64,000 bases of DNA from Acinetobacter phage YMC13/03/R2096, in the sequence record KM672662.1; one strand, 5' to 3'. Position 1 is the first letter of the stretch. Each line of letters starts with the position of its first letter. Both the position numbers and the translations under genes were made by a program. This document shows, in pieces, positions 16,051 to 21,631 of this stretch. The notes under the pieces were generated by a model. It worked only from the letters and a program-made list of their open reading frames with translations. It did no database searches and was not told the origin of the DNA.

Positions 16051-16136
16051 GGGTGATGTTGGGGTGTTGGTCAACCCCATCAGACTGTAAATCTGACGTG
16101 AAAGCTGTCTAGGTTCGAATCCTAGATCACCCACCA
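16051..16136 (+). tRNA. tRNA-Tyr (GTA)
   Basis: Acceptor GGGTGAT/ATCACCC. Anticodon loop is ctGTAaa. Long variable arm. T-arm is GGTTCGAATCC. CCA is encoded. Confidence 0.8.
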
Positions 16137-16139
16137 AAT

Positions 16140-16214
16140 AGTACCTTAGTTCAGGGGTAGAACGCAGAACTGATAATTCTGAGGTCGATGGTTCGAAACC
16201 ATCAGGTACTACCA
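16140..16214 (+). tRNA. tRNA-Ile (GAT)
   Basis: Acceptor AGTACCT/AGGTACT pairs perfectly. Loop is ctGATaa. CCA is encoded. Confidence 0.8.
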
Positions 16215-16243
16215 ATTTAAAAGTTTTTAAAAGTTTATTCAGG

Positions 16244-16315
16244 TCTAGTGTAGCACAACGGTAGTGCAGCAGACTGTTAATCTGTTGGTTGTTGGTTCGA
16301 ATCCAGCCTCTAGAG
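16244..16315 (+). tRNA. tRNA-Asn (GTT)
   Basis: Loop ctGTTaa, D-stem GCAC/GTGC and G73. The acceptor has one mismatch and no CCA is encoded. Confidence 0.55.
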
Positions 16316-17057
16316 CCTGAGTAAATTAAGAATTACCCTTCGGGGTATGGGTCGTGTATAACCCTTAGATAAACTGCAAAACAGTATAAAGTCGTAACGG
16401 CAGTTATGGCGCAGAGTAAAAATCTGTCAAGTACACACTCAAGGTATCATACTTATGTGGCGTAGAGCCAATCGGTGTAAACCATTTAAGTATGGGGGTG
16501 TAATGCTCCTGAGTCGATAGGCAATAAGAGAACTTGAAGGTATCTAGCGAAGTTGATTGTCAAGTCAAAACGCTGTTTACCATTGTGAGAGGTATATAGA
16601 GTTTAACAGGTGGTGCTGAATCTCGTAGTCCTAAACCAAGTGGACAATATATGCTTGAAACATCGTGCATGGTAAAGCACATTAGGTAGTGTGGTATTGA
16701 TGGGTTCAAAAGATCTGTTAGCCACAGAGAAACCACTATCTATGCAATACAAATTTCATTTTAGGAAAAAATTAAATTCAAAAGTGTTTCTCACGTTGGC
16801 ATGAAAGGTGCTTACATAGTAATGGGTTGTCCATTGCACATTTAACCTGAAAGGTTATTTGTATTTTCATGAAAGGATTATGTTTGGTAGGCATACTAGC
16901 ATAGTTTGAGTATTGGGAGAGTAGTTCCAACGTCTAAGAGTGGTTAGCTATACTGACCAGCACTGATCACTACTATATAAAGTATAGTGGATAATGAGGG
17001 AAAAGATAATCCTCTCAAGGTGGTCATTTAAACGTGTAATCTCAGCGTTTTACTTGT

Positions 17058-17132
17058 GGCTCTGTAGCATAGTGGATTATGCGCCTCCCTGTCTAGGAGA
17101 AAAACGCCAGTTCGAGTCTGGTCAGAGTCGCC
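17058..17132 (+). tRNA. tRNA-Asp (GTC)
   Basis: Acceptor GGCTCTG/CAGAGTC. Loop is ctGTCta. G73. CCA is encoded. Confidence 0.75.
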
Positions 17133-17136
17133 AGTA

Positions 17137-17211
17137 TTGTCGTATAGTGTAATGGTTAGCACAGAAGACTTTGACTCTTCTAGTTTAGGTTCGAGTCCTA
17201 ATTCGACTACC
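17137..17211 (+). tRNA. tRNA-Gln (TTG)
   Basis: Anticodon stem GAAGA/TCTTC pairs perfectly. Loop is ctTTGac. T-arm is TTAGG-TTCGAGT-CCTAA. The acceptor has one mismatch. Confidence 0.6.
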
Positions 17212-17214
17212 AAA

Positions 17215-17290
17215 TGGGTCACTAGCACAATGGTAGTGCAGTTGCTTTGCAAGCATCAGGTTAAGGGTTCGAGTCCCTTGTGTATCCACC
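17215..17290 (+). tRNA. tRNA-like element, anticodon probably TGC (Ala). Acceptor pairing is poor.
   Basis: D-stem GCAC/GTGC, loop ttTGCaa, T-arm AAGGG-TTCGAGT-CCCTT and a CCA end. Only 5 of 7 acceptor base pairs could be formed by hand. Confidence 0.35.
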
Positions 17291-17292
17291 AA

Positions 17293-17368
17293 TATTCCAT
17301 TCGACTAGCGGTTAGGTCGCTTCCCTTTCAAGGAAGTAGCACGAGTTCGAATCTCGTATGGAATACCA
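17293..17368 (+). tRNA. tRNA-Glu (TTC)
   Basis: Acceptor ATTCCAT/ATGGAAT pairs perfectly. Stem CTTCC/GGAAG. Loop ctTTCaa. CCA is encoded. Confidence 0.8.
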
Positions 17369-17370
17369 AT

Positions 17371-17447
17371 AGGACGTTAGCTCAGTTGGTTAGAGCAAGA
17401 GCCTTTTAAGTTCGAGGTCATAGGTTCAAATCCTATACGTCCTACCA
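17371..17447 (+). tRNA. tRNA-Lys (TTT)
   Basis: Acceptor AGGACGT/ACGTCCT pairs perfectly. D-arm is GCTCAGTTGGTTAGAGC. Loop ctTTTaa. CCA is encoded. Confidence 0.8.
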
Positions 17448-17452
17448 ACAAT

Positions 17453-17526
17453 GGTGACTTTGGTGTAATGGTTTGCATCACTCCCTGTGAAGGAGAAGGT
17501 CAGGGTTCAAATCCCGAAGTCACACC
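17453..17526 (+). tRNA. tRNA-His (GTG) with G-1
   Basis: Loop ctGTGaa. Acceptor GTGACTT/AAGTCAC is preceded by an extra G. CCA is encoded. Confidence 0.65.
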
Positions 17527-18225
17527 AAGAATTTTAAGAATTTCAAACGAGTAGAGGTACAGTCCTGAAAGTTTGAAAGTGGGGCGACACCTGCCTGAAG
17601 TAGTAGCTAATAATGGCCTGTTAGTGAATCTAAGTGGTGTGACTTAACTGACTTGGAGAGAAAGGTCGGGGCAGAGCACAAGTAGCTGAGATGGATTAGC
17701 GCTACCCTGAAGAGGTTGAGAGGTTGGATCGTTACCAACATTGTGCACCAAATTTTTAAAAGAAGAATTATTTTAGGATTACCATAACCTAAAGGCTCGA
17801 AGGGGCGGTCTGCAACATCGTTGTTGGTGAGTTGAAGTCTCACATGGTAATCCAAAGTGATTTTTATAGAGGTTAAACCAGATAGGTTCTGGGACACCCT
17901 GCTAAGGTGATCGTGTTAGAAATAGCATTCGGATCGAGACCGATGGCCTCTGCCAAATTTGTTGTGCGCTCCACAGGTTGATCCTGTTACGGTTATCCTC
18001 AAGACCAGACCGCAACAAAGCAACATCAATGGCTTGTCTAAAGTAACGCTGTTGATGGGGCAAATGCAGACACCGATTCGCCTCTGACCTAGTTAAGCAC
18101 ACTAATCGGTTTTTTCTTAGGGCTATTGGACAGGTAATTACCCCTCCTTTAGTTACGACAAGATATCTTCGTGGCTCGCTACCTTGAAGGCATCCCAGTT
18201 AGGGTTCTGGTTAAAAACTCACTAC

Positions 18226-18300
18226 AGTCCCTTAGCTCAATCGGGAGAGCAACACTCTTACAAGGTGAAGGTAGTAGGTTCGAAACCTACAGGGACTACC
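18226..18300 (+). tRNA. tRNA-Val (TAC)
   Basis: Acceptor AGTCCCT/AGGGACT pairs perfectly. Loop ctTACaa. T-arm is GTAGG-TTCGAAA-CCTAC. CCA is encoded. Confidence 0.75.
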
Positions 18301-18301
18301 A

Positions 18302-18391
18302 AGGTGGGTAGCGTCAAGGTGACAAAGCGGGCTTGAACCCCGTGCCAATTGTGATGAGCAGTTGAGAGTTCGATTCTTTTACCCATCGCCA
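18302..18391 (+). tRNA. tRNA-Ser (TGA), class II
   Basis: Acceptor GGTGGGT/ACCCATC. Stem GCGGG/CCCGT. Loop ctTGAac. Long variable arm. G73 and CCA. Confidence 0.6.
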
Positions 18392-18392
18392 A

Positions 18393-18466
18393 GCGTTTAT
18401 AGTGTAGTGGTAACACCCTGTACTTCCAATTCAGTATCTTCGGTTCGAATCCGAATAGACGCTCCA
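18393..18466 (+). tRNA. tRNA-Gly (TCC)
   Basis: Acceptor GCGTTTA/TAGACGC. Loop ctTCCaa. T-arm is TTCGG-TTCGAAT-CCGAA. U73 and CCA. Confidence 0.75.
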
Positions 18467-18477
18467 GATTATGTTTA

Positions 18478-18600
18478 TGGACACTTCCTAAGGTTCTTTC
18501 TACAGGTTCGAAACTGTTTTAAGAATTGCTGGTGCTAGGTTTAGCGTCAAGAATCATTCGAAGGGTTCTTGGGGTGGTGAGTTCGATTCTCACAGTGTTC
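18478..18600 (+). ncRNA. aberrant 123-nt tRNA-like element
   Basis: GGACACT pairs with AGTGTTC on 7 of 7 positions, enclosing about 110 nt. Inside are two T-arm-like hairpins (ACAGG-TTCGAAA-CTGT and GTGAG-TTCGATT-CTCAC) and a 6-bp stem CAAGAA/TTCTTG. There is no canonical anticodon arm and no CCA. Confidence 0.3.
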
Positions 18601-18619
18601 CCCCTATTTTAAAGTTTAT

Positions 18620-18696
18620 CTCTGTGTAGCTCAGTTTGGTAGAGCACTCGCTTTGGGAGTGAGGGGTCGTAAGTTCAATTCTTACTACAGAGACCA
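18620..18696 (+). tRNA. tRNA-Pro (TGG)
   Basis: Acceptor CTCTGTG/TACAGAG. Stem CTCGC/GTGAG. Loop ttTGGga. T-arm is GTAAG-TTCAATT-CTTAC. CCA is encoded. Confidence 0.7.
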
Positions 18697-18783
18697 GTTA
18701 TGAAGTGTTTGTACAGCTATCAGCTCACCGTTTAAAGGATACGGACAAGTCGGCTCGACTAAAGACTCACTTCATATGTTTTT

Positions 18784-18860
18784 GGGTAGTTGAAGGGAAT
18801 GGCATACCTTTCACGCTTAGAACGTGAAGTTTCTGAGTTCGAGTCTCAGACTACCTACCA
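18784..18860 (+). tRNA. class-I tRNA with anticodon TAG, presumably Leu (CUA/CUG)
   Basis: Acceptor GGGTAGT/ACTACCT. Stem TCACG/CGTGA pairs perfectly. Loop ctTAGaa. Variable loop is 5 nt. A73 and CCA. Confidence 0.6.
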
Positions 18861-18866
18861 AATTCT

Positions 18867-18942
18867 GGGGATATAGCCCAACGGCAGAGGCAAGAGGTTT
18901 AAACCCTCTCAAGTTTCAGTTCGAATCTGAATATCCCTACCA
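18867..18942 (+). tRNA. class-I tRNA with anticodon TAA, presumably Leu (UUA/UUG)
   Basis: Acceptor GGGGATA/TATCCCT. Stem AGAGG/CCTCT pairs perfectly. Loop ttTAAac. Variable loop is 5 nt. T-arm is TTCAG-TTCGAAT-CTGAA. A73 and CCA. Confidence 0.6.
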
Positions 18943-18957
18943 GTTTAGGAGTGCTAC

Positions 18958-19239
18958 ATGGAAGTATTACTTGTTAGTGATTGTAGATGCCAAGAGCGTT
19001 ATGACTTTGCAGATATTGTAAAGGATGCTCAAGAACAAGGTATCAAAATTAAGTACACATTAGTTCCTAAGAAGATATCCTATGAAGATAGAACTTACAC
19101 ATTTGTTAATGTTGAAGATCTCACTAAGGATAAAAGTTGTATTGTTGGTAAGAAGTTTGATGATGTCTATTTGACACCAGAAGCTAAAGATGCTATACCT
19201 TTAGGGTTGCTATCATTTATACTTACAAGAATACGTTAA
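18958..19239 (+). CDS. small hypothetical protein embedded in tRNA cluster
   Basis: 93-aa ORF. An AGGAG site lies 8 nt upstream of the ATG. Confidence 0.5.
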   Translation: MEVLLVSDCRCQERYDFADIVKDAQEQGIKIKYTLVPKKISYEDRTYTFVNVEDLTKDKSCIVGKKFDDVYLTPEAKDAIPLGLLSFILTRIR

Positions 19240-19246
19240 GTTTTAA

Positions 19247-19334
19247 GTCCCTACACCCTCCAAGAGCCTTCTAAGCTCTCGACATTAAATAGGGGGAAGG
19301 TAGTCAGAGTGTTCGATTCACTGTGGGGACTCCA
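19247..19334 (+). tRNA. atypical tRNA-like element, anticodon TCT (Arg?). It has a rudimentary D-arm and a 27-nt variable region.
   Basis: Acceptor GTCCCTA/TGGGGAC and stem AGAGC/GCTCT pair perfectly. Loop ctTCTaa. T-arm is GAGTG-TTCGATT-CACTG. CCA is encoded. Confidence 0.4.
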
Positions 19335-19335
19335 A

Positions 19336-19411
19336 GCCGAATTAGCTCAGTTGGTAGAGCAGCGCACTTGTAATGCGAAGGTCGTAGACTCGGATTCTAC
19401 ATTCGGCACCA
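19336..19411 (+). tRNA. tRNA-Thr (TGT)
   Basis: Acceptor GCCGAAT/ATTCGGC pairs perfectly. D-arm is GCTCAGTTGGTAGAGC. Loop ctTGTaa. T-loop is CTCGGAT. CCA is encoded. Confidence 0.75.
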
Positions 19412-19417
19412 TATTTA

Positions 19418-19507
19418 GGTCGTGTAGCTTAAAGAAAGCAAGAGGATTTATAAACCTTTTCACTAGATAAGTGCTTGATGTGGGGGCAGTACCCACCACG
19501 ACTACCA
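19418..19507 (+). tRNA. class-II tRNA-like element with a 9-nt anticodon loop (AUUUAUAAA); identity unresolved
   Basis: Acceptor GGTCGTG/CACGACT. D-stem GCTT/AAGC. Stem AGAGG/CCTTT encloses the 9-nt loop. Long variable arm. T-arm is GTGGG-GGCAGTA-CCCAC. A73 and CCA. Confidence 0.4.
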
Positions 19508-19509
19508 AT

Positions 19510-19579
19510 AAGTCCCCCTCTGGGAGGGAAGAGGTCTCCAAAACCACTTAGCTGTGTTCGATTCACAGGGGATTTGCCA
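19510..19579 (+). tRNA. tRNA-Trp (CCA), short 70-nt form
   Basis: Acceptor AAGTCCC/GGGATTT. Loop ctCCAaa. T-arm is CTGTG-TTCGATT-CACAG. G73 and CCA. The D-arm is compact. Confidence 0.55.
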
Positions 19580-19729
19580 AATTAGATTAAGATGTTGGTG
19601 CGTGACAACCTTAATCGGCATGATTTTAGTTTATGTCGATGTGATAAACATGGCTAGATAGATATGTCGATAAAAACTAGAAATTAAAACACGTAGTATT
19701 GAAATGTTAAAAATAATTAAACAAAACAC

Positions 19730-19758
19730 TTGACAAATAGATTTTTAGTGTTATATAT
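19730..19758 (+). promoter_or_regulatory. promoter (TTGACA, 16-17-nt spacer, TATATA/TATAAT) upstream of tRNA-Met and thioredoxin
   Basis: Near-consensus -35 and -10 elements. Confidence 0.5.
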
Positions 19759-19783
19759 AATATATAAGCAATTAAGTTTTCAT

Positions 19784-19858
19784 AGCGAGGTAGTGTAACG
19801 GTTTGCACAGGGGACTCATAATCCTCTGGTTTGGGTTCGAATCCCAACTTCGCTTCCA
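19784..19858 (+). tRNA. tRNA-Met/fMet or Ile2 (CAT)
   Basis: Acceptor AGCGAGG/CTTCGCT. Stem GGGGA/TCCTC. Loop ctCATaa. T-arm is TTGGG-TTCGAAT-CCCAA. CCA is encoded. Confidence 0.7.
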
Positions 19859-19878
19859 GTTTCGGAGGATCAATTATC

Positions 19879-20193
19879 GTGTATTTAGAACTAGTAGAAA
19901 ATGAAGCATTTAGCCAGATTGGTACAAACCGAAAGGTTATCTTCAAATTTGGTGCAAAATGGTGCTCTGGTTGTAAAGCGATAACTCCAGTCCTCAAAAA
20001 ATTATCTGAACAAAATCCTGATATTGTCTTTGTAGATATCGATATTGAGCAATCGAAAGGACTAGCTGAAAGATTTAATGTTCAGACCTTACCAACTTTC
20101 ATATCTTTCCAAGAGTCCTTAAAGAAGGATACCATTGTAGGTACTCCTAAAATTACTCAGTTGAAAGAAATGATCACAAATATGCAAAAATAA
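19879..20193 (+). CDS. trx: thioredoxin
   Basis: Active site WCSGCK within a Trx fold. GTG start at 19879 lies 8 nt after GGAGGA. The track ORF starts earlier and overlaps the tRNA. Confidence 0.75.
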   Translation: MYLELVENEAFSQIGTNRKVIFKFGAKWCSGCKAITPVLKKLSEQNPDIVFVDIDIEQSKGLAERFNVQTLPTFISFQESLKKDTIVGTPKITQLKEMITNMQK

Positions 20194-20912: not shown

Positions 20913-20990
20913 ATGTCGAATATATTTGCACCGTGTAGTCCAGTGCAAGCAAAGTTACTGCAAAGTGATGCAACAATTACAGTTTATGGT
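20913..20990 (+). CDS. terL: terminase large subunit, exon 1 (MSNIFAPCSPVQAKLLQSDATITVYG)
   Basis: ATG follows AGGAGG. The frame hits TGA right after ..VYGG and a group I intron follows. The exon end is approximate, 20990 or 20994. Confidence 0.6.
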
Positions 20991-21312
20991 GGGTGAATAT
21001 AGGCTCCTTTAAGTAGTAATACTTATCGAATAACCTTGTGAAATGCTGGAAACCCCTTAGAGCCTTGAGTACCGAAGTGTAACAACCTTAAGGATTGGGC
21101 AATCAGCAGGGAAGCCTCTTATTAGAGGAACCCTCAACGACTATCGAAAGGGTAACGAACCGAGTAGAGTAGGGGCAAGTGTCCCGAAGTGCAAGGCACC
21201 TCAAGTAGGTGAAGATATAGTCTGGACTCATGGGAAACCTTGAGCATGCAATTGGCTAATGTGCTGTTGCATGGGTTGGCTCTAACGAAGCCTTCTTAAC
21301 ACAATCACTATG
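20991..21312 (+). ncRNA. group I intron 1 in terL (ORF-less, about 320 nt)
   Basis: Contains conserved group I core elements: an R-like element CAACGACTAT and an S-like element GAAGATATAGTCTG. It also has the blocks CCTTTAAGT..ACTTATCGAATAACC, GAAATGCTGGAAACCCC and CAATCAGCAG, which are shared with intron 2 and with the nrdB intron. It ends ..CACTATG (omega-G). Confidence 0.65.
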
Positions 21313-21382
21313 GGGTCTGCGAAAACCTATGGAGGTCTACTAAGACACCTTCAATATGTAAATAGTCCTCATTATGTTGGGT
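21313..21382 (+). CDS. terL: terminase large subunit, exon 2 (GSAKTYGGLLRHLQYVNSPHYVG, P-loop region)
   Basis: A 23-codon open frame lies between the two introns. GSAKT preceded by exon-1 YG gives a Walker-A-like segment. Confidence 0.55.
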
Positions 21383-21631
21383 GAAAATACATGCCCCTTT
21401 AAGTGGTGACACTTATCGAATAACCCCTCTAATTGCTGGGAACCCTCTTTGAGGCAATCAGCAGCCAAGCCCAGCAGGGAAGGTTCAACGACTATTCCGA
21501 CAGGAAGTACACTCAAGTGAGTGGAAACGGGGGGCATCTCGCAGAGATGATGATATAGTCTGATCTACATGGTGACATGTAGCAAGGTTAAAACCTTGGA
21601 GTTAGCTTAACGAGCTAACACTAACAAAATG
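21383..21631 (+). ncRNA. group I intron 2 in terL (ORF-less, about 250 nt)
   Basis: Begins GAAAATACATGCCCCTTTAAGTGG..ACTTATCGAATAACC. Contains GCTGGGAACCC, CAATCAGCAG, CAACGACTAT (R) and GATGATATAGTCTG (S). A terminal hairpin is followed by ..AACAAAATG (omega-G at 21631). Confidence 0.65.

Follow-up and report, generated by a model that had tools for sequence, protein, structure and literature searches.

Predicted tRNA-Phe, tRNA-Cys and (8/4) tRNA-Ser genes between variable spacers in the tRNA array of an Acinetobacter phage

The gap between tRNA-His and tRNA-Val

The DNA analysed (hereafter the window; 64,000 nucleotides of Acinetobacter phage YMC13/03/R2096, record KM672662.1) carries a tRNA array on its + strand at positions 16051-19858. 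Over common stretches the window was 92-98% identical to the Acinetobacter phages Ab15, Bestia, Mithridates, AM24 and Herod; it derives from a myophage of Acinetobacter baumannii that belongs to the AM24/Bestia/Ab15 group. At default settings ARAGORN called 17 tRNAs in the array, none of which was tRNA-Phe, tRNA-Cys or tRNA-Ser(GCU), and the default boundaries of tRNA-His and tRNA-Val enclosed a gap of 698 nt (17528-18225), in agreement with an earlier note on this DNA, which had described a segment of roughly 700 bp between these two genes. When ARAGORN was relaxed (-ps80), all three missing tRNAs were called inside the gap, each on the + strand and ending in NCCA, an encoded end that the other tRNAs of the array also have. 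The gap and its boundaries are divided as follows.

17454..17527, + strand: tRNA-His(GUG), canonical, the left boundary; ARAGORN default; Rfam tRNA 46.1 bits
17528..17675, + strand: 5' spacer, 148 nt, lineage-specific
17676..17750, + strand: predicted tRNA-Phe(GAA); RF00005 38.6 bits at 17676-17747; ARAGORN -ps80 only
17751..17778, + strand: Phe-Cys spacer, short and A/T-rich; conserved in five close relatives
17779..17854, + strand: predicted tRNA-Cys(GCA); ARAGORN -ps80 only
17855..17867, + strand: Cys-Ser spacer, short; identical in five close relatives
17868..17955, + strand: predicted tRNA-Ser(GCU), (8/4) type; ARAGORN -ps80 only
17956..18017, + strand: 3' spacer, first block; only in Ab15 and Bestia, 95-97% identity
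18018..18162, + strand: orphan insert; no relatives among 50,697 phage records
18163..18225, + strand: trailer before tRNA-Val, overlapped by a dubious 'tRNA-Ala(CGC)'
18226..18301, + strand: tRNA-Val(UAC), the right boundary; ARAGORN default; Rfam tRNA 62.8 bits

The segment had been described as free of ORFs, and indeed no ORF of at least 100 aa overlapped the gap; the longest, of 96 aa, is antisense (17607-17897). The accompanying claim that only antisense ORFs are present was incorrect, as sense ORFs of 42-50 aa overlap the gap too. That the gap encodes one or more small proteins is extremely improbable. ORFs of 33-96 aa do occur on both strands, and the automatic annotation of Ab15 puts short 'hypothetical protein' CDSs on the equivalent DNA; however, the + strand CDS of Ab15 is not preserved intact in the window, the longest gap ORF runs antisense to the three tRNA genes, the four longest were without a Pfam match, and the sole PHROG matches (E about 0.005) belonged to an ORF extending into tRNA-Val.

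The earlier note had further called the segment structured, which was borne out for the whole gap (z = -2.58 with 20 shuffles only; reverse strand, z = -0.75) but not for either of the two flanking spacers, whose folding was near that of shuffled sequence; the excess structure presumably resides in the central part, with its three tRNA genes. Within the array, the Rfam match to GOLLD (RF02032) was confined to 16682-17048, in the neighbouring gap, and the present gap lies in the same array, on the same strand, and is similar in size. Because tRNA arrays are also the typical setting of GOLLD and ROOL, the size, the setting and the whole-gap z score could together suggest that all 698 nt form a second such element, a single large ornate non-coding RNA. 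This reading is very improbable and is already contradicted by the data: the tRNA family was the sole Rfam family matched (E<=10, lax filters), the middle 280 nt consist of three independently conserved tRNAs, the flanks have no excess stability, and relatives retain the tRNAs without the flanks, with no unit of several hundred nucleotides conserved. The gap has no sequence or structure match to GOLLD, is not conserved as a unit, and resolves into tRNAs and spacers. The notion of a single segment likewise failed, since one or both of the two spacers are missing from close relatives, and a regulatory RNA, another of the identities proposed for it, found no support in a non-tRNA Rfam match at E<=10, in full-length conservation or in excess folding energy of the spacers. 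The Infernal/Rfam check that had been recommended, made first with gathering thresholds and afterwards at E<=10, matched tRNA-Phe and nothing else in the gap; matches to the group I intron family (RF00028) in the window lay only at 20975-21582. A large ORF-free gap adjoining a GOLLD RNA need not hold a second large RNA.

Cloverleaves of tRNA-Phe, tRNA-Cys and tRNA-Ser

On dinucleotide shuffles of the gap, relaxed ARAGORN returned a background of 0.19 calls per 698 nt. An independent search for acceptor stems of 7 bp that run into NCCA gave zero-mismatch matches solely at tRNA-Cys and tRNA-Ser and recovered tRNA-Phe with one mismatch (G7.A66); five other one-mismatch matches overlapped these genes or were weak. 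All three genes have an intact anticodon loop of 7 nt with U33, GG in the D loop, and a discriminator base that agrees with the anticodon, and in all three the T loop departs from the consensus (T54-Psi55-C56 ... A58).

The tRNA-Phe gene, which exceeded the Rfam tRNA cut-off (38.6 against 29 bits), has A73, an encoded CCA, the anticodon loop CUGAAGA, and an atypical T loop, AUCGUUA, with A at position 54. It was 100% identical to the annotated tRNA-Phe(gaa) of Mithridates; a tRNA-Phe is annotated at the equivalent position in the relatives' genomes, and the tRNA-Phe(GAA) genes of Mithridates, Bestia, AM24 and Herod are orthologous, lie in a syntenic array, and share 93-100% identity with the gene in the window. 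Two stem mismatches are present in the window, G7.A66 and U28.U42; the latter is common to the window, Ab15 and Mithridates, whereas A28 in Bestia, AM24 and Herod re-establishes the 28:42 pair. In Herod, A5-U68 is replaced by G5-C68, a compensatory change inside the close clade, and comparison with phiAbaA1 revealed a possible compensating 19:56 pair.

The tRNA-Cys gene folds as a standard 7/5 cloverleaf with a D stem of 3 bp, A13.A22 being unpaired, and carries U73, an encoded CCA and the anticodon loop CUGCAAC. Its T loop is UUGAAGU, in which G replaces the usual C56, and the Rfam tRNA model gave no match at E<=10. A candidate elbow pair, C19:G56, could accommodate this replacement; phiAbaA1 fits such a pairing (G19:C56), while Herod (A56) does not. 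Homologues are annotated as tRNA-Cys(GCA) in the Saclayvirus genomes Acibel004, Ab_121 and phiAbaA1, and these are orthologous and syntenic, with about 77-88% identity and compensatory stem changes. The gene is unannotated in the AM24-like clade, unlike in Saclayvirus.

In the tRNA-Ser gene, the acceptor stem has 8 bp and the T stem 4 bp, the variable arm of 5 bp is capped by a GAAA loop, and G73, an encoded CCA and the anticodon loop CUGCUAA are present; the T loop is AUCGAGA, with A at position 54, and Rfam again gave no match at E<=10. Unannotated DNA with ~70% identity to the gene occurred in 76 records of Pseudomonas phages, of which those inspected were Pakpunaviruses, and no GenBank record inspected carried an (8/4) tRNA-Ser annotation. 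A Ser(GCU) pattern search of IMG/VR retrieved solely isolate genomes that had already been found. Ab15 differs from the window by two substitutions in this gene, both of which convert G.U to a Watson-Crick pair.

In order to assess the stems, each of the three genes was aligned with its homologues in further phages of Acinetobacter and Pseudomonas; the alignments comprised 6-7 distinct sequences, which represent about 3-4 lineages. Overall, 92-96% of the cells were paired, compared with 30-46% in slid controls, and for each gene 0 of 500 shuffles was as good. Paired cells amounted to 92.1% for tRNA-Phe (slid controls 35-45%), 96.4% for tRNA-Cys (33-42%) and 94.9% for tRNA-Ser in the 8/4 fold (31-46%), and the pairs changed on both sides numbered 15 of 21, 15 of 20 and 18 of 26, respectively. 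The 8/4 geometry was further distinguished by pair 8:78, which was formed in all six tRNA-Ser sequences (A-U in five, G-C in one), whereas pair 62:78 of the 7/5 alternative was formed in none of the six. The 5-bp variable stem was 96.7% paired, with four of its five pairs changed on both sides, and G73 and the anticodon GCU were invariant in the six sequences.

The earlier suggestion of a degenerate tRNA came closest to the truth in naming a tRNA, but the segment holds three genes, and these are structurally conserved rather than degenerate. Given that every one of them has an off-consensus T loop or elbow and escapes default detection, and that the tRNA-Phe of the window has two stem mismatches, we considered whether these cloverleaves act as decoys or regulators that resemble tRNAs (sponges for host anticodon nucleases or for other defences directed at tRNAs), or are decaying pseudogenes. 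A non-adaptor role was proposed by its authors for the tRNA-like sRNA2 of PAK_P3 (PMC4933390). Neither alternative sits well with the anticodon loops described above, or with the encoded CCA and the fit of anticodon, discriminator and, for tRNA-Ser, variable arm to PheRS, CysRS and SerRS; moreover, the three genes fill the Phe and Cys gaps and the AGY gap left by the 17 default calls. Compensatory stem changes across genera would be unexpected for pseudogenes, and 8/4 tRNAs have been found functional in E. coli translation (PMC5389517). Both possibilities taken together are improbable.

Spacers that flank the tRNA genes

The flanking stretches were patchily distributed. In the 5' spacer (17528-17675), a hairpin whose interior varies (about 17541-17578) precedes a block of 97 nt (17579-17675). 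The spacer had relatives only in Ab15, Bestia and Mithridates (95-97% identity); it is missing in AM24 and Herod, and could not be aligned with the equivalent gaps of vB_AciJM_313 and phiAbaA1. All three G-rich strings that had been quoted as examples of complementary stretches are present and were assigned to this spacer: GGGGCGACACCTGCC at 17581-17595, GGTGTGACTT at 17636-17645 and GAAAGGTCGGGGCAGAGC at 17660-17677. Its folding was no better than that of shuffles (z = -0.93 and -0.55), and an exact word from it had 0 matches in IMG/VR.

The 3' spacer (17956-18225) is a 270-nt mosaic of three blocks, pieces of which folded at z = -0.95 to +0.25. The first block could form a small three-way junction, although its folding was not above chance, and it is missing in AM24 and Herod. 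The orphan insert that follows contains a loose hairpin and then six T (about 18075-18115), and folded at z = -0.95; an exact-word scan found nothing in reference genomes, and its hairpin pattern gave four matches in IMG/VR, unrelated and attributable to chance. In metagenomes, a first word from the 3' spacer had 0 matches and a second had one chance 21-mer. The trailer was 90.5% identical to the DNA directly 3' of a Ser(GCU)-like gene in vB_AciJM_313. The 'tRNA-Ala(CGC)' called at 18146-18218 is probably a chance call, having no CCA and two acceptor mismatches; its 5' part is absent from the vB_AciJM_313 homologue, and relaxed ARAGORN has the background of 0.19 calls per shuffled 698 nt given above. 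In AM24 and Herod, Phe, Cys, Ser and Val are nearly contiguous, with Val a few nucleotides 3' of Ser. AM24 carries an HNH gene immediately upstream of tRNA-Phe.

Several origins of the spacers were examined and rejected. As remnants of an HNH gene they gave nothing better than E = 1.3 when six proteins encoded nearby in relatives, five of which are HNH endonucleases, served as tblastn queries; as degenerate array tRNAs they scored inside the shuffle null in Smith-Waterman alignments, a His-like stretch reaching 28 where the 95th percentile of the null lay at 29.5; and their resemblance to PAK_P4 sRNA1 was confined to 9-mer matches. No Rfam family matched the spacers (E<=10, lax filters, 16200-19900 scanned), no repeats of them were found elsewhere in the window, and a scan for promoters and terminators reported no sigma-70-like promoter or terminator-like site within 17528-18225. 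A neighbour-protein search of IMG/VR for further relatives returned 1 and 2 poor loci.

Among the four phages with the 97-nt block, no more than 3-4 of its positions vary, while the hairpin upstream is rearranged, and the minimum-energy fold of the block is a four-way junction; this near-invariance is compatible with an undetected function. Such a block, or the 205-nt insert at 17958-18162 with its hairpin and T6, might encode an independent small RNA, for which the small RNAs in the tRNA regions of related phages provide a precedent. We think this unlikely. Folding energies could not be told apart from those of shuffles, AM24 and Herod do without the spacers, distant relatives are not alignable, no promoter-like site was reported, and neither PAK_P4 sRNA1 nor an Rfam family resembles them. 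Conservation of the spacers is itself of little information, because the relatives that carry them are 95-97% identical. Since conservation and structure appear to be lacking, the most likely reading of the two stretches, of 148 nt and 270 nt, is that they separate tRNAs and are discarded in processing. The processed spacer invoked by the earlier note is thus a fair default for these two stretches, with their poor conservation and little structure, but not for the tRNA genes between them.

Relation to known tRNAs and proposed use

Together these data make it likely that the segment is a continuation of the array, with functional, non-canonical tRNA-Phe, tRNA-Cys and (8/4) tRNA-Ser genes flanked by mosaic, lineage-specific and dispensable spacers. 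The tRNA-Ser is a further example of a described non-canonical class and not a new kind of element. The (8/4) tRNA-Ser form a subgroup of allo-tRNA that has been reported from tRNA clusters of phages (Mukai et al. 2017, Nucleic Acids Res 45:2776, PMC5389517). Like its published counterparts, the present gene divides a 12-bp acceptor/T branch into 8 + 4, has a long variable arm, G73 and a serine anticodon, lies within a phage tRNA gene cluster, and is missed by standard finders; it differs from them in its T-loop A54. The published sources are metagenomic alpha-proteobacterial phages, proteobacteria and rumen Clostridia, whereas here the gene was found in cultured Acinetobacter and Pseudomonas myophages, and it is conserved across two host genera. 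Default finders under-count the tRNAs of these myophages, which include several phage therapy candidates.

Small RNAs are also known from phage tRNA regions. In the related Pseudomonas phage PAK_P3, two phage tRNAs flank an unannotated RNA that is about 100 nt long (132 nt as listed), includes a motif resembling a T loop, and reaches high expression at late stages of infection (PMC4933390). Small RNAs named from such regions are PAK_P3 sRNA2, which has a T-arm-like motif, PAK_P4 sRNA1 and the band C/D RNAs of T4. In contrast to these, the three present genes have complete cloverleaves, anticodon loops and CCA, and are therefore tRNAs rather than small RNAs of unknown function.

The 8/4 form of tRNA-Ser, A54 of tRNA-Phe and tRNA-Ser, and the candidate swapped 19:56 pair of tRNA-Cys are common to Acinetobacter and Pseudomonas therapeutic myophages. 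As a speculation to which we give little credence, these deviations might evade host tRNA nucleases or other defences while charging is kept, and/or the 97-nt block at 17579-17675 might be a new small RNA derived from the precursor.

We infer that the three predicted tRNAs are transcribed, processed, charged and used in translation. The array would be transcribed as polycistronic precursors, from which host RNase P and 3'-processing nucleases would free the tRNAs; because CCA is encoded, its addition would be unnecessary. The combinations of anticodon and discriminator base that constitute the Phe, Cys and Ser identity sets are well established. U73 with GCA for CysRS, and G73 with the variable arm for SerRS, are also stated by Mukai et al. 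(PMC5389517). Host enzymes could accordingly recognize the three tRNAs, PheRS through GAA and A73, CysRS through GCA and U73, and SerRS through the long variable arm and G73, and the charged tRNAs may decode UUY, UGY and AGY codons during infection. Since tRNA-Ser(UGA), the other Ser tRNA of the array, reads UCN, and AGY makes up 34% of the Ser codons in the long ORFs of the window, tRNA-Ser(GCU) and tRNA-Ser(UGA) are complementary. Once tRNA-Phe, tRNA-Cys and tRNA-Ser(GCU) are added to the default calls, 18 amino acids are represented in the array and the serine codon boxes are both covered.

Three tRNA genes between tRNA-His and tRNA-Val

At its default threshold, ARAGORN placed 17 tRNA genes in 16051-19858, all on the + strand, leaving a gap of 698 nt from the end of tRNA-His (17527) to the start of tRNA-Val (18226); the interval described in the earlier note is therefore real. 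It had been called ORF-free, which holds for ORFs of at least 100 aa but not for shorter ones: the longest, of 96 aa, is antisense, and sense ORFs of 42-50 aa are also present, contrary to the claim that only antisense ORFs overlap the segment. Pfam gave no match for any of the gap's four longest ORFs, and PHROG matches in the gap were restricted to one ORF extending into tRNA-Val.

When the ARAGORN threshold was lowered to 80% of its default, three genes with NCCA ends were detected within the gap.

tRNA genes detected at 80% of the default threshold
17676-17750, +, tRNA-Phe(GAA), NCCA end
17779-17854, +, tRNA-Cys(GCA), NCCA end
17868-17955, +, tRNA-Ser(GCU), NCCA end

Dinucleotide shuffles of the region gave 0.19 relaxed calls per 698 nt, both strands summed, and three CCA-ended calls on the same strand therefore far exceed chance. 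In an Rfam search of a 3.7-kb slice with laxer filters, the tRNA model matched 17676-17747 with 38.6 bits (cut-off 29); the gathering-threshold scan of the whole 64 kb filtered this tRNA-Phe out despite its above-cut-off score. An independent scan for 7-bp acceptor stems with NCCA on their 3' side produced two zero-mismatch matches, the Cys and Ser genes. It also picked up Phe, whose one mismatch was the known G7.A66, and five further one-mismatch matches that were weak or overlapped the three genes. The relaxed run also reported a fourth gene, 'tRNA-Ala(CGC)' at 18146-18218, which lacks CCA, has acceptor mismatches and is retained only in its 3' part in vB_AciJM_313; it is probably a chance call.

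The three cloverleaf genes have the right combinations of anticodon and discriminator, an encoded CCA and the orientation of the array. They would be co-transcribed with the rest of the array, and their products released by RNase P and 3' trimming, charged by host PheRS, CysRS and SerRS, and used to decode UUY, UGY and AGY codons. Phe and Cys are the amino acids most obviously absent from the default ARAGORN list, and AGY accounts for 34% of the Ser codons in a set of 29 long ORFs from the window. Since the array's other Ser tRNA, tRNA-Ser(UGA) (18303-18391, +), covers UCN, the GCU tRNA would complete serine decoding. The transcriptome of the related phage PAK_P3 offers indirect precedent for expression of such unannotated tRNA-like genes: an RNA of ~100 nt, given as 132 nt in its listing and abundant late in infection, lies "between two phage-encoded tRNAs" and carries a T-loop-like 11-mer, the published sequence including GGAGGTTCGATTCCTC (PMC4933390).

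Conservation by compensatory change

Over shared stretches, the region is 92-98% identical to the A. baumannii myophages Ab15, Bestia, Mithridates, AM24 and Herod.

Stretches shared with relatives
17415-18017, common to Ab15 and Bestia
17562-17961, common to Mithridates
17675-17961 only, common to AM24 and Herod

In AM24 and Herod, tRNA-Val lies a few nt 3' of the shared core; tRNA-Phe(GAA) is annotated inside the core in these relatives' records. The Ab15 record (PP763259.1) contains no tRNA features in the inspected stretch, and short 'hypothetical protein' CDSs are drawn over its tRNA and GOLLD DNA, an annotation artefact in the public record.

The covariation alignments were small (6-7 distinct sequences from ~3-4 lineages per tRNA); the pairing signal was consistent in every stem of all three tRNAs, and the three genes are conserved by compensatory change. 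Substitutions among the close relatives likewise keep the structure.

Covariation in the three tRNA genes
tRNA-Phe: 92.1% of cells paired; 15/21 pairs altered on both sides; shuffles as good, 0/500; slid controls, 35-45% paired
tRNA-Cys: 96.4% of cells paired; 15/20 pairs altered on both sides; shuffles as good, 0/500; slid controls, 33-42% paired
tRNA-Ser: 94.9% of cells paired; 18/26 pairs altered on both sides; shuffles as good, 0/500; slid controls, 31-46% paired

tRNA-Phe has A73, the T loop AUCGUUA and a T arm identical to that of the Pakpunavirus Phe tRNA, with mismatches at G7.A66 and U28.U42; A28 in Bestia, AM24 and Herod restores the 28:42 pair, and A5-U68 is replaced in Herod by G5-C68. 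tRNA-Cys folds as a standard 7/5 cloverleaf; position 73 is U, and the D stem has 3 bp, A13.A22 being unpaired. Three Saclayvirus phages (Acibel004, Ab_121 and phiAbaA1) have homologues annotated as tRNA-Cys. The T loop of the window's tRNA-Cys, UUGAAGU, has G at position 56; in phiAbaA1 the loop is UUCGAGU and a D-loop C is replaced by G. These changes would be consistent with a swap of the 19:56 elbow pair, a tentative reading because Herod has A56 without a D-loop change. The Phe and Cys genes are unremarkable: relatives carry orthologues of both that are already annotated. The Cys acceptor helix can be extended by three pairs between leader GGA and U73-C74-C75 (GGATTACCAT...ATGGTAATCC; 17776-17788, 17845-17854); the precursor's 3' end would then be sequestered.

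A tRNA-Ser of the (8/4) class

The acceptor/T branch of tRNA-Ser is 8 + 4 rather than 7 + 5. Column pair 8:78 was formed in every one of the six sequences, as G-C in phiAbaA1 and as A-U in the other five, whereas 62:78, required for a 5-bp T stem, was formed in none of the six. The variable arm of this tRNA has 5 bp, position 73 is G and the T loop is AUCGAGA; in Ab15, both substitutions turn G.U into Watson-Crick pairs. An (8/4) tRNA-Ser has been described in bacteriophage tRNA gene clusters, and 8/4 tRNAs were shown to function in E. coli translation (Mukai et al., PMC5389517). Like the published form, the gene in the window combines an 8/4 branch, a long variable arm, G73 and a Ser anticodon; these are the testable defining features, and it therefore belongs to the known class.

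The stretch 17824-17958 (the Ser gene plus the 3' part of the Cys gene) was ~70% identical to 76 Pseudomonas phage records, the inspected ones being Pakpunaviruses. Their Ser-like homologue is unannotated, lies between tRNA-Lys and tRNA-Leu, and is likewise read as Ser(GCU) by relaxed ARAGORN. This new member of a published class is unannotated in the inspected records and common to cultured Acinetobacter and Pseudomonas myophages. Newness is low, given annotated Phe and Cys orthologues and a published Ser class; the chief remaining value is annotation correction in therapeutic-phage genomes. Between those two tRNAs, the Pakpunaviruses have a pair of Ser-type tRNA-like genes of 8/4 shape, one after the other and both unannotated (1534-1621 and 1707-1796 in locus L016, from Pseudomonas phage K5, with the same positions in three further loci, L006, L009 and L015): one is the Ser(GCU) homologue, and the anticodon of the second is AGA, A34 being unusual.

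The spacers and other elements of the array

The 5' spacer (17528-17675), found only in Ab15, Bestia and Mithridates (95-97% identity), consists of a hairpin with a rearranged interior, longer by 25 nt in Bestia and Mithridates, and a 97-nt block (17579-17675) that hardly varies and contains the G-rich strings pointed out previously. No alignment was possible between this spacer and the corresponding gap in vB_AciJM_313 or in phiAbaA1. The 3' spacer (17956-18225) has a mosaic make-up.

Stretches of the 3' spacer
17956-18017, common to Ab15 and Bestia
18018-18162, no match in 50,697 phage records
18163-18225, homologous to the trailer directly 3' of the Ser(GCU)-like gene of vB_AciJM_313

In metagenomes and reference genomes, exact words from 18018-18162 turned up a single chance 21-mer and nothing else; a loose hairpin pattern run against IMG/VR yielded four matches, all by chance. 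Neither spacer resembled PAK_P4 sRNA1 (a small RNA of another Pseudomonas phage), the array's own tRNAs or the rest of the window; no HNH remnant was found in the region, and no promoter-like or terminator-like site was reported by the scan.

The earlier note had envisaged a structured segment, possibly a degenerate tRNA, a regulatory RNA or a processed spacer. The whole region folded with z = -2.58 (20 shuffles), best attributed to the three tRNAs; both spacers folded no better than shuffles (z -0.95 to +0.25) and are patchy among relatives, which argues against a single, uniformly structured unit. No Rfam family matched either spacer. Neither a regulatory RNA nor a large structured RNA is supported, and the tRNA and spacer options came close: three conserved tRNA genes with, most economically, inter-tRNA spacers and insertion scars removed in processing. 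Genome comparison shows the spacers to be dispensable in sister phages. Given relatives that diverge by only 3-5%, a small RNA within 17579-17675 is a possible but unlikely reading; this small unexplained conserved block also keeps some interest. An 11-mer of the 5' spacer (17636-17646, TGGTGTGACTT) is a perfect complement of the tRNA-His 3' end (17517-17527, AAGTCACACCA); with a BLAST E of 3.7 this may be chance, or it could reflect precursor pairing.

Other elements of the window include further sub-threshold tRNA-like elements in other array gaps.

Other elements
16682-17048, +, GOLLD RNA (Rfam RF02032), 217.6 bits, E = 3e-60, full model length
18525-18602, tRNA-like; 18523-18601, weakly tRNA-Sec-like, 18.8 bits
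19256-19334, tRNA-like
19418-19504, +, tRNA-like, Rfam tRNA 32.3 bits, long extra arm, CCA end, missed by ARAGORN
19510-19579, Trp(CCA)-like
20975-21244, +, group I intron (RF00028), 78.8 bits
21360-21582, +, group I intron (RF00028), 96.6 bits

GOLLD RNA occupies the array's first large gap (16318-17057, tRNA-Asn to tRNA-Asp), presumably the reason why the present segment had been labelled "second". In Mithridates the gap from tRNA-Asn to tRNA-Phe is just 177 nt, and this phage thus appears to lack GOLLD RNA and the Asp-to-His tRNA block. Both group I introns are found a short way downstream of the thioredoxin gene (19879-20193), at the position equivalent to that of the terminase large-subunit gene in relatives; this gene is therefore probably interrupted twice in the window.
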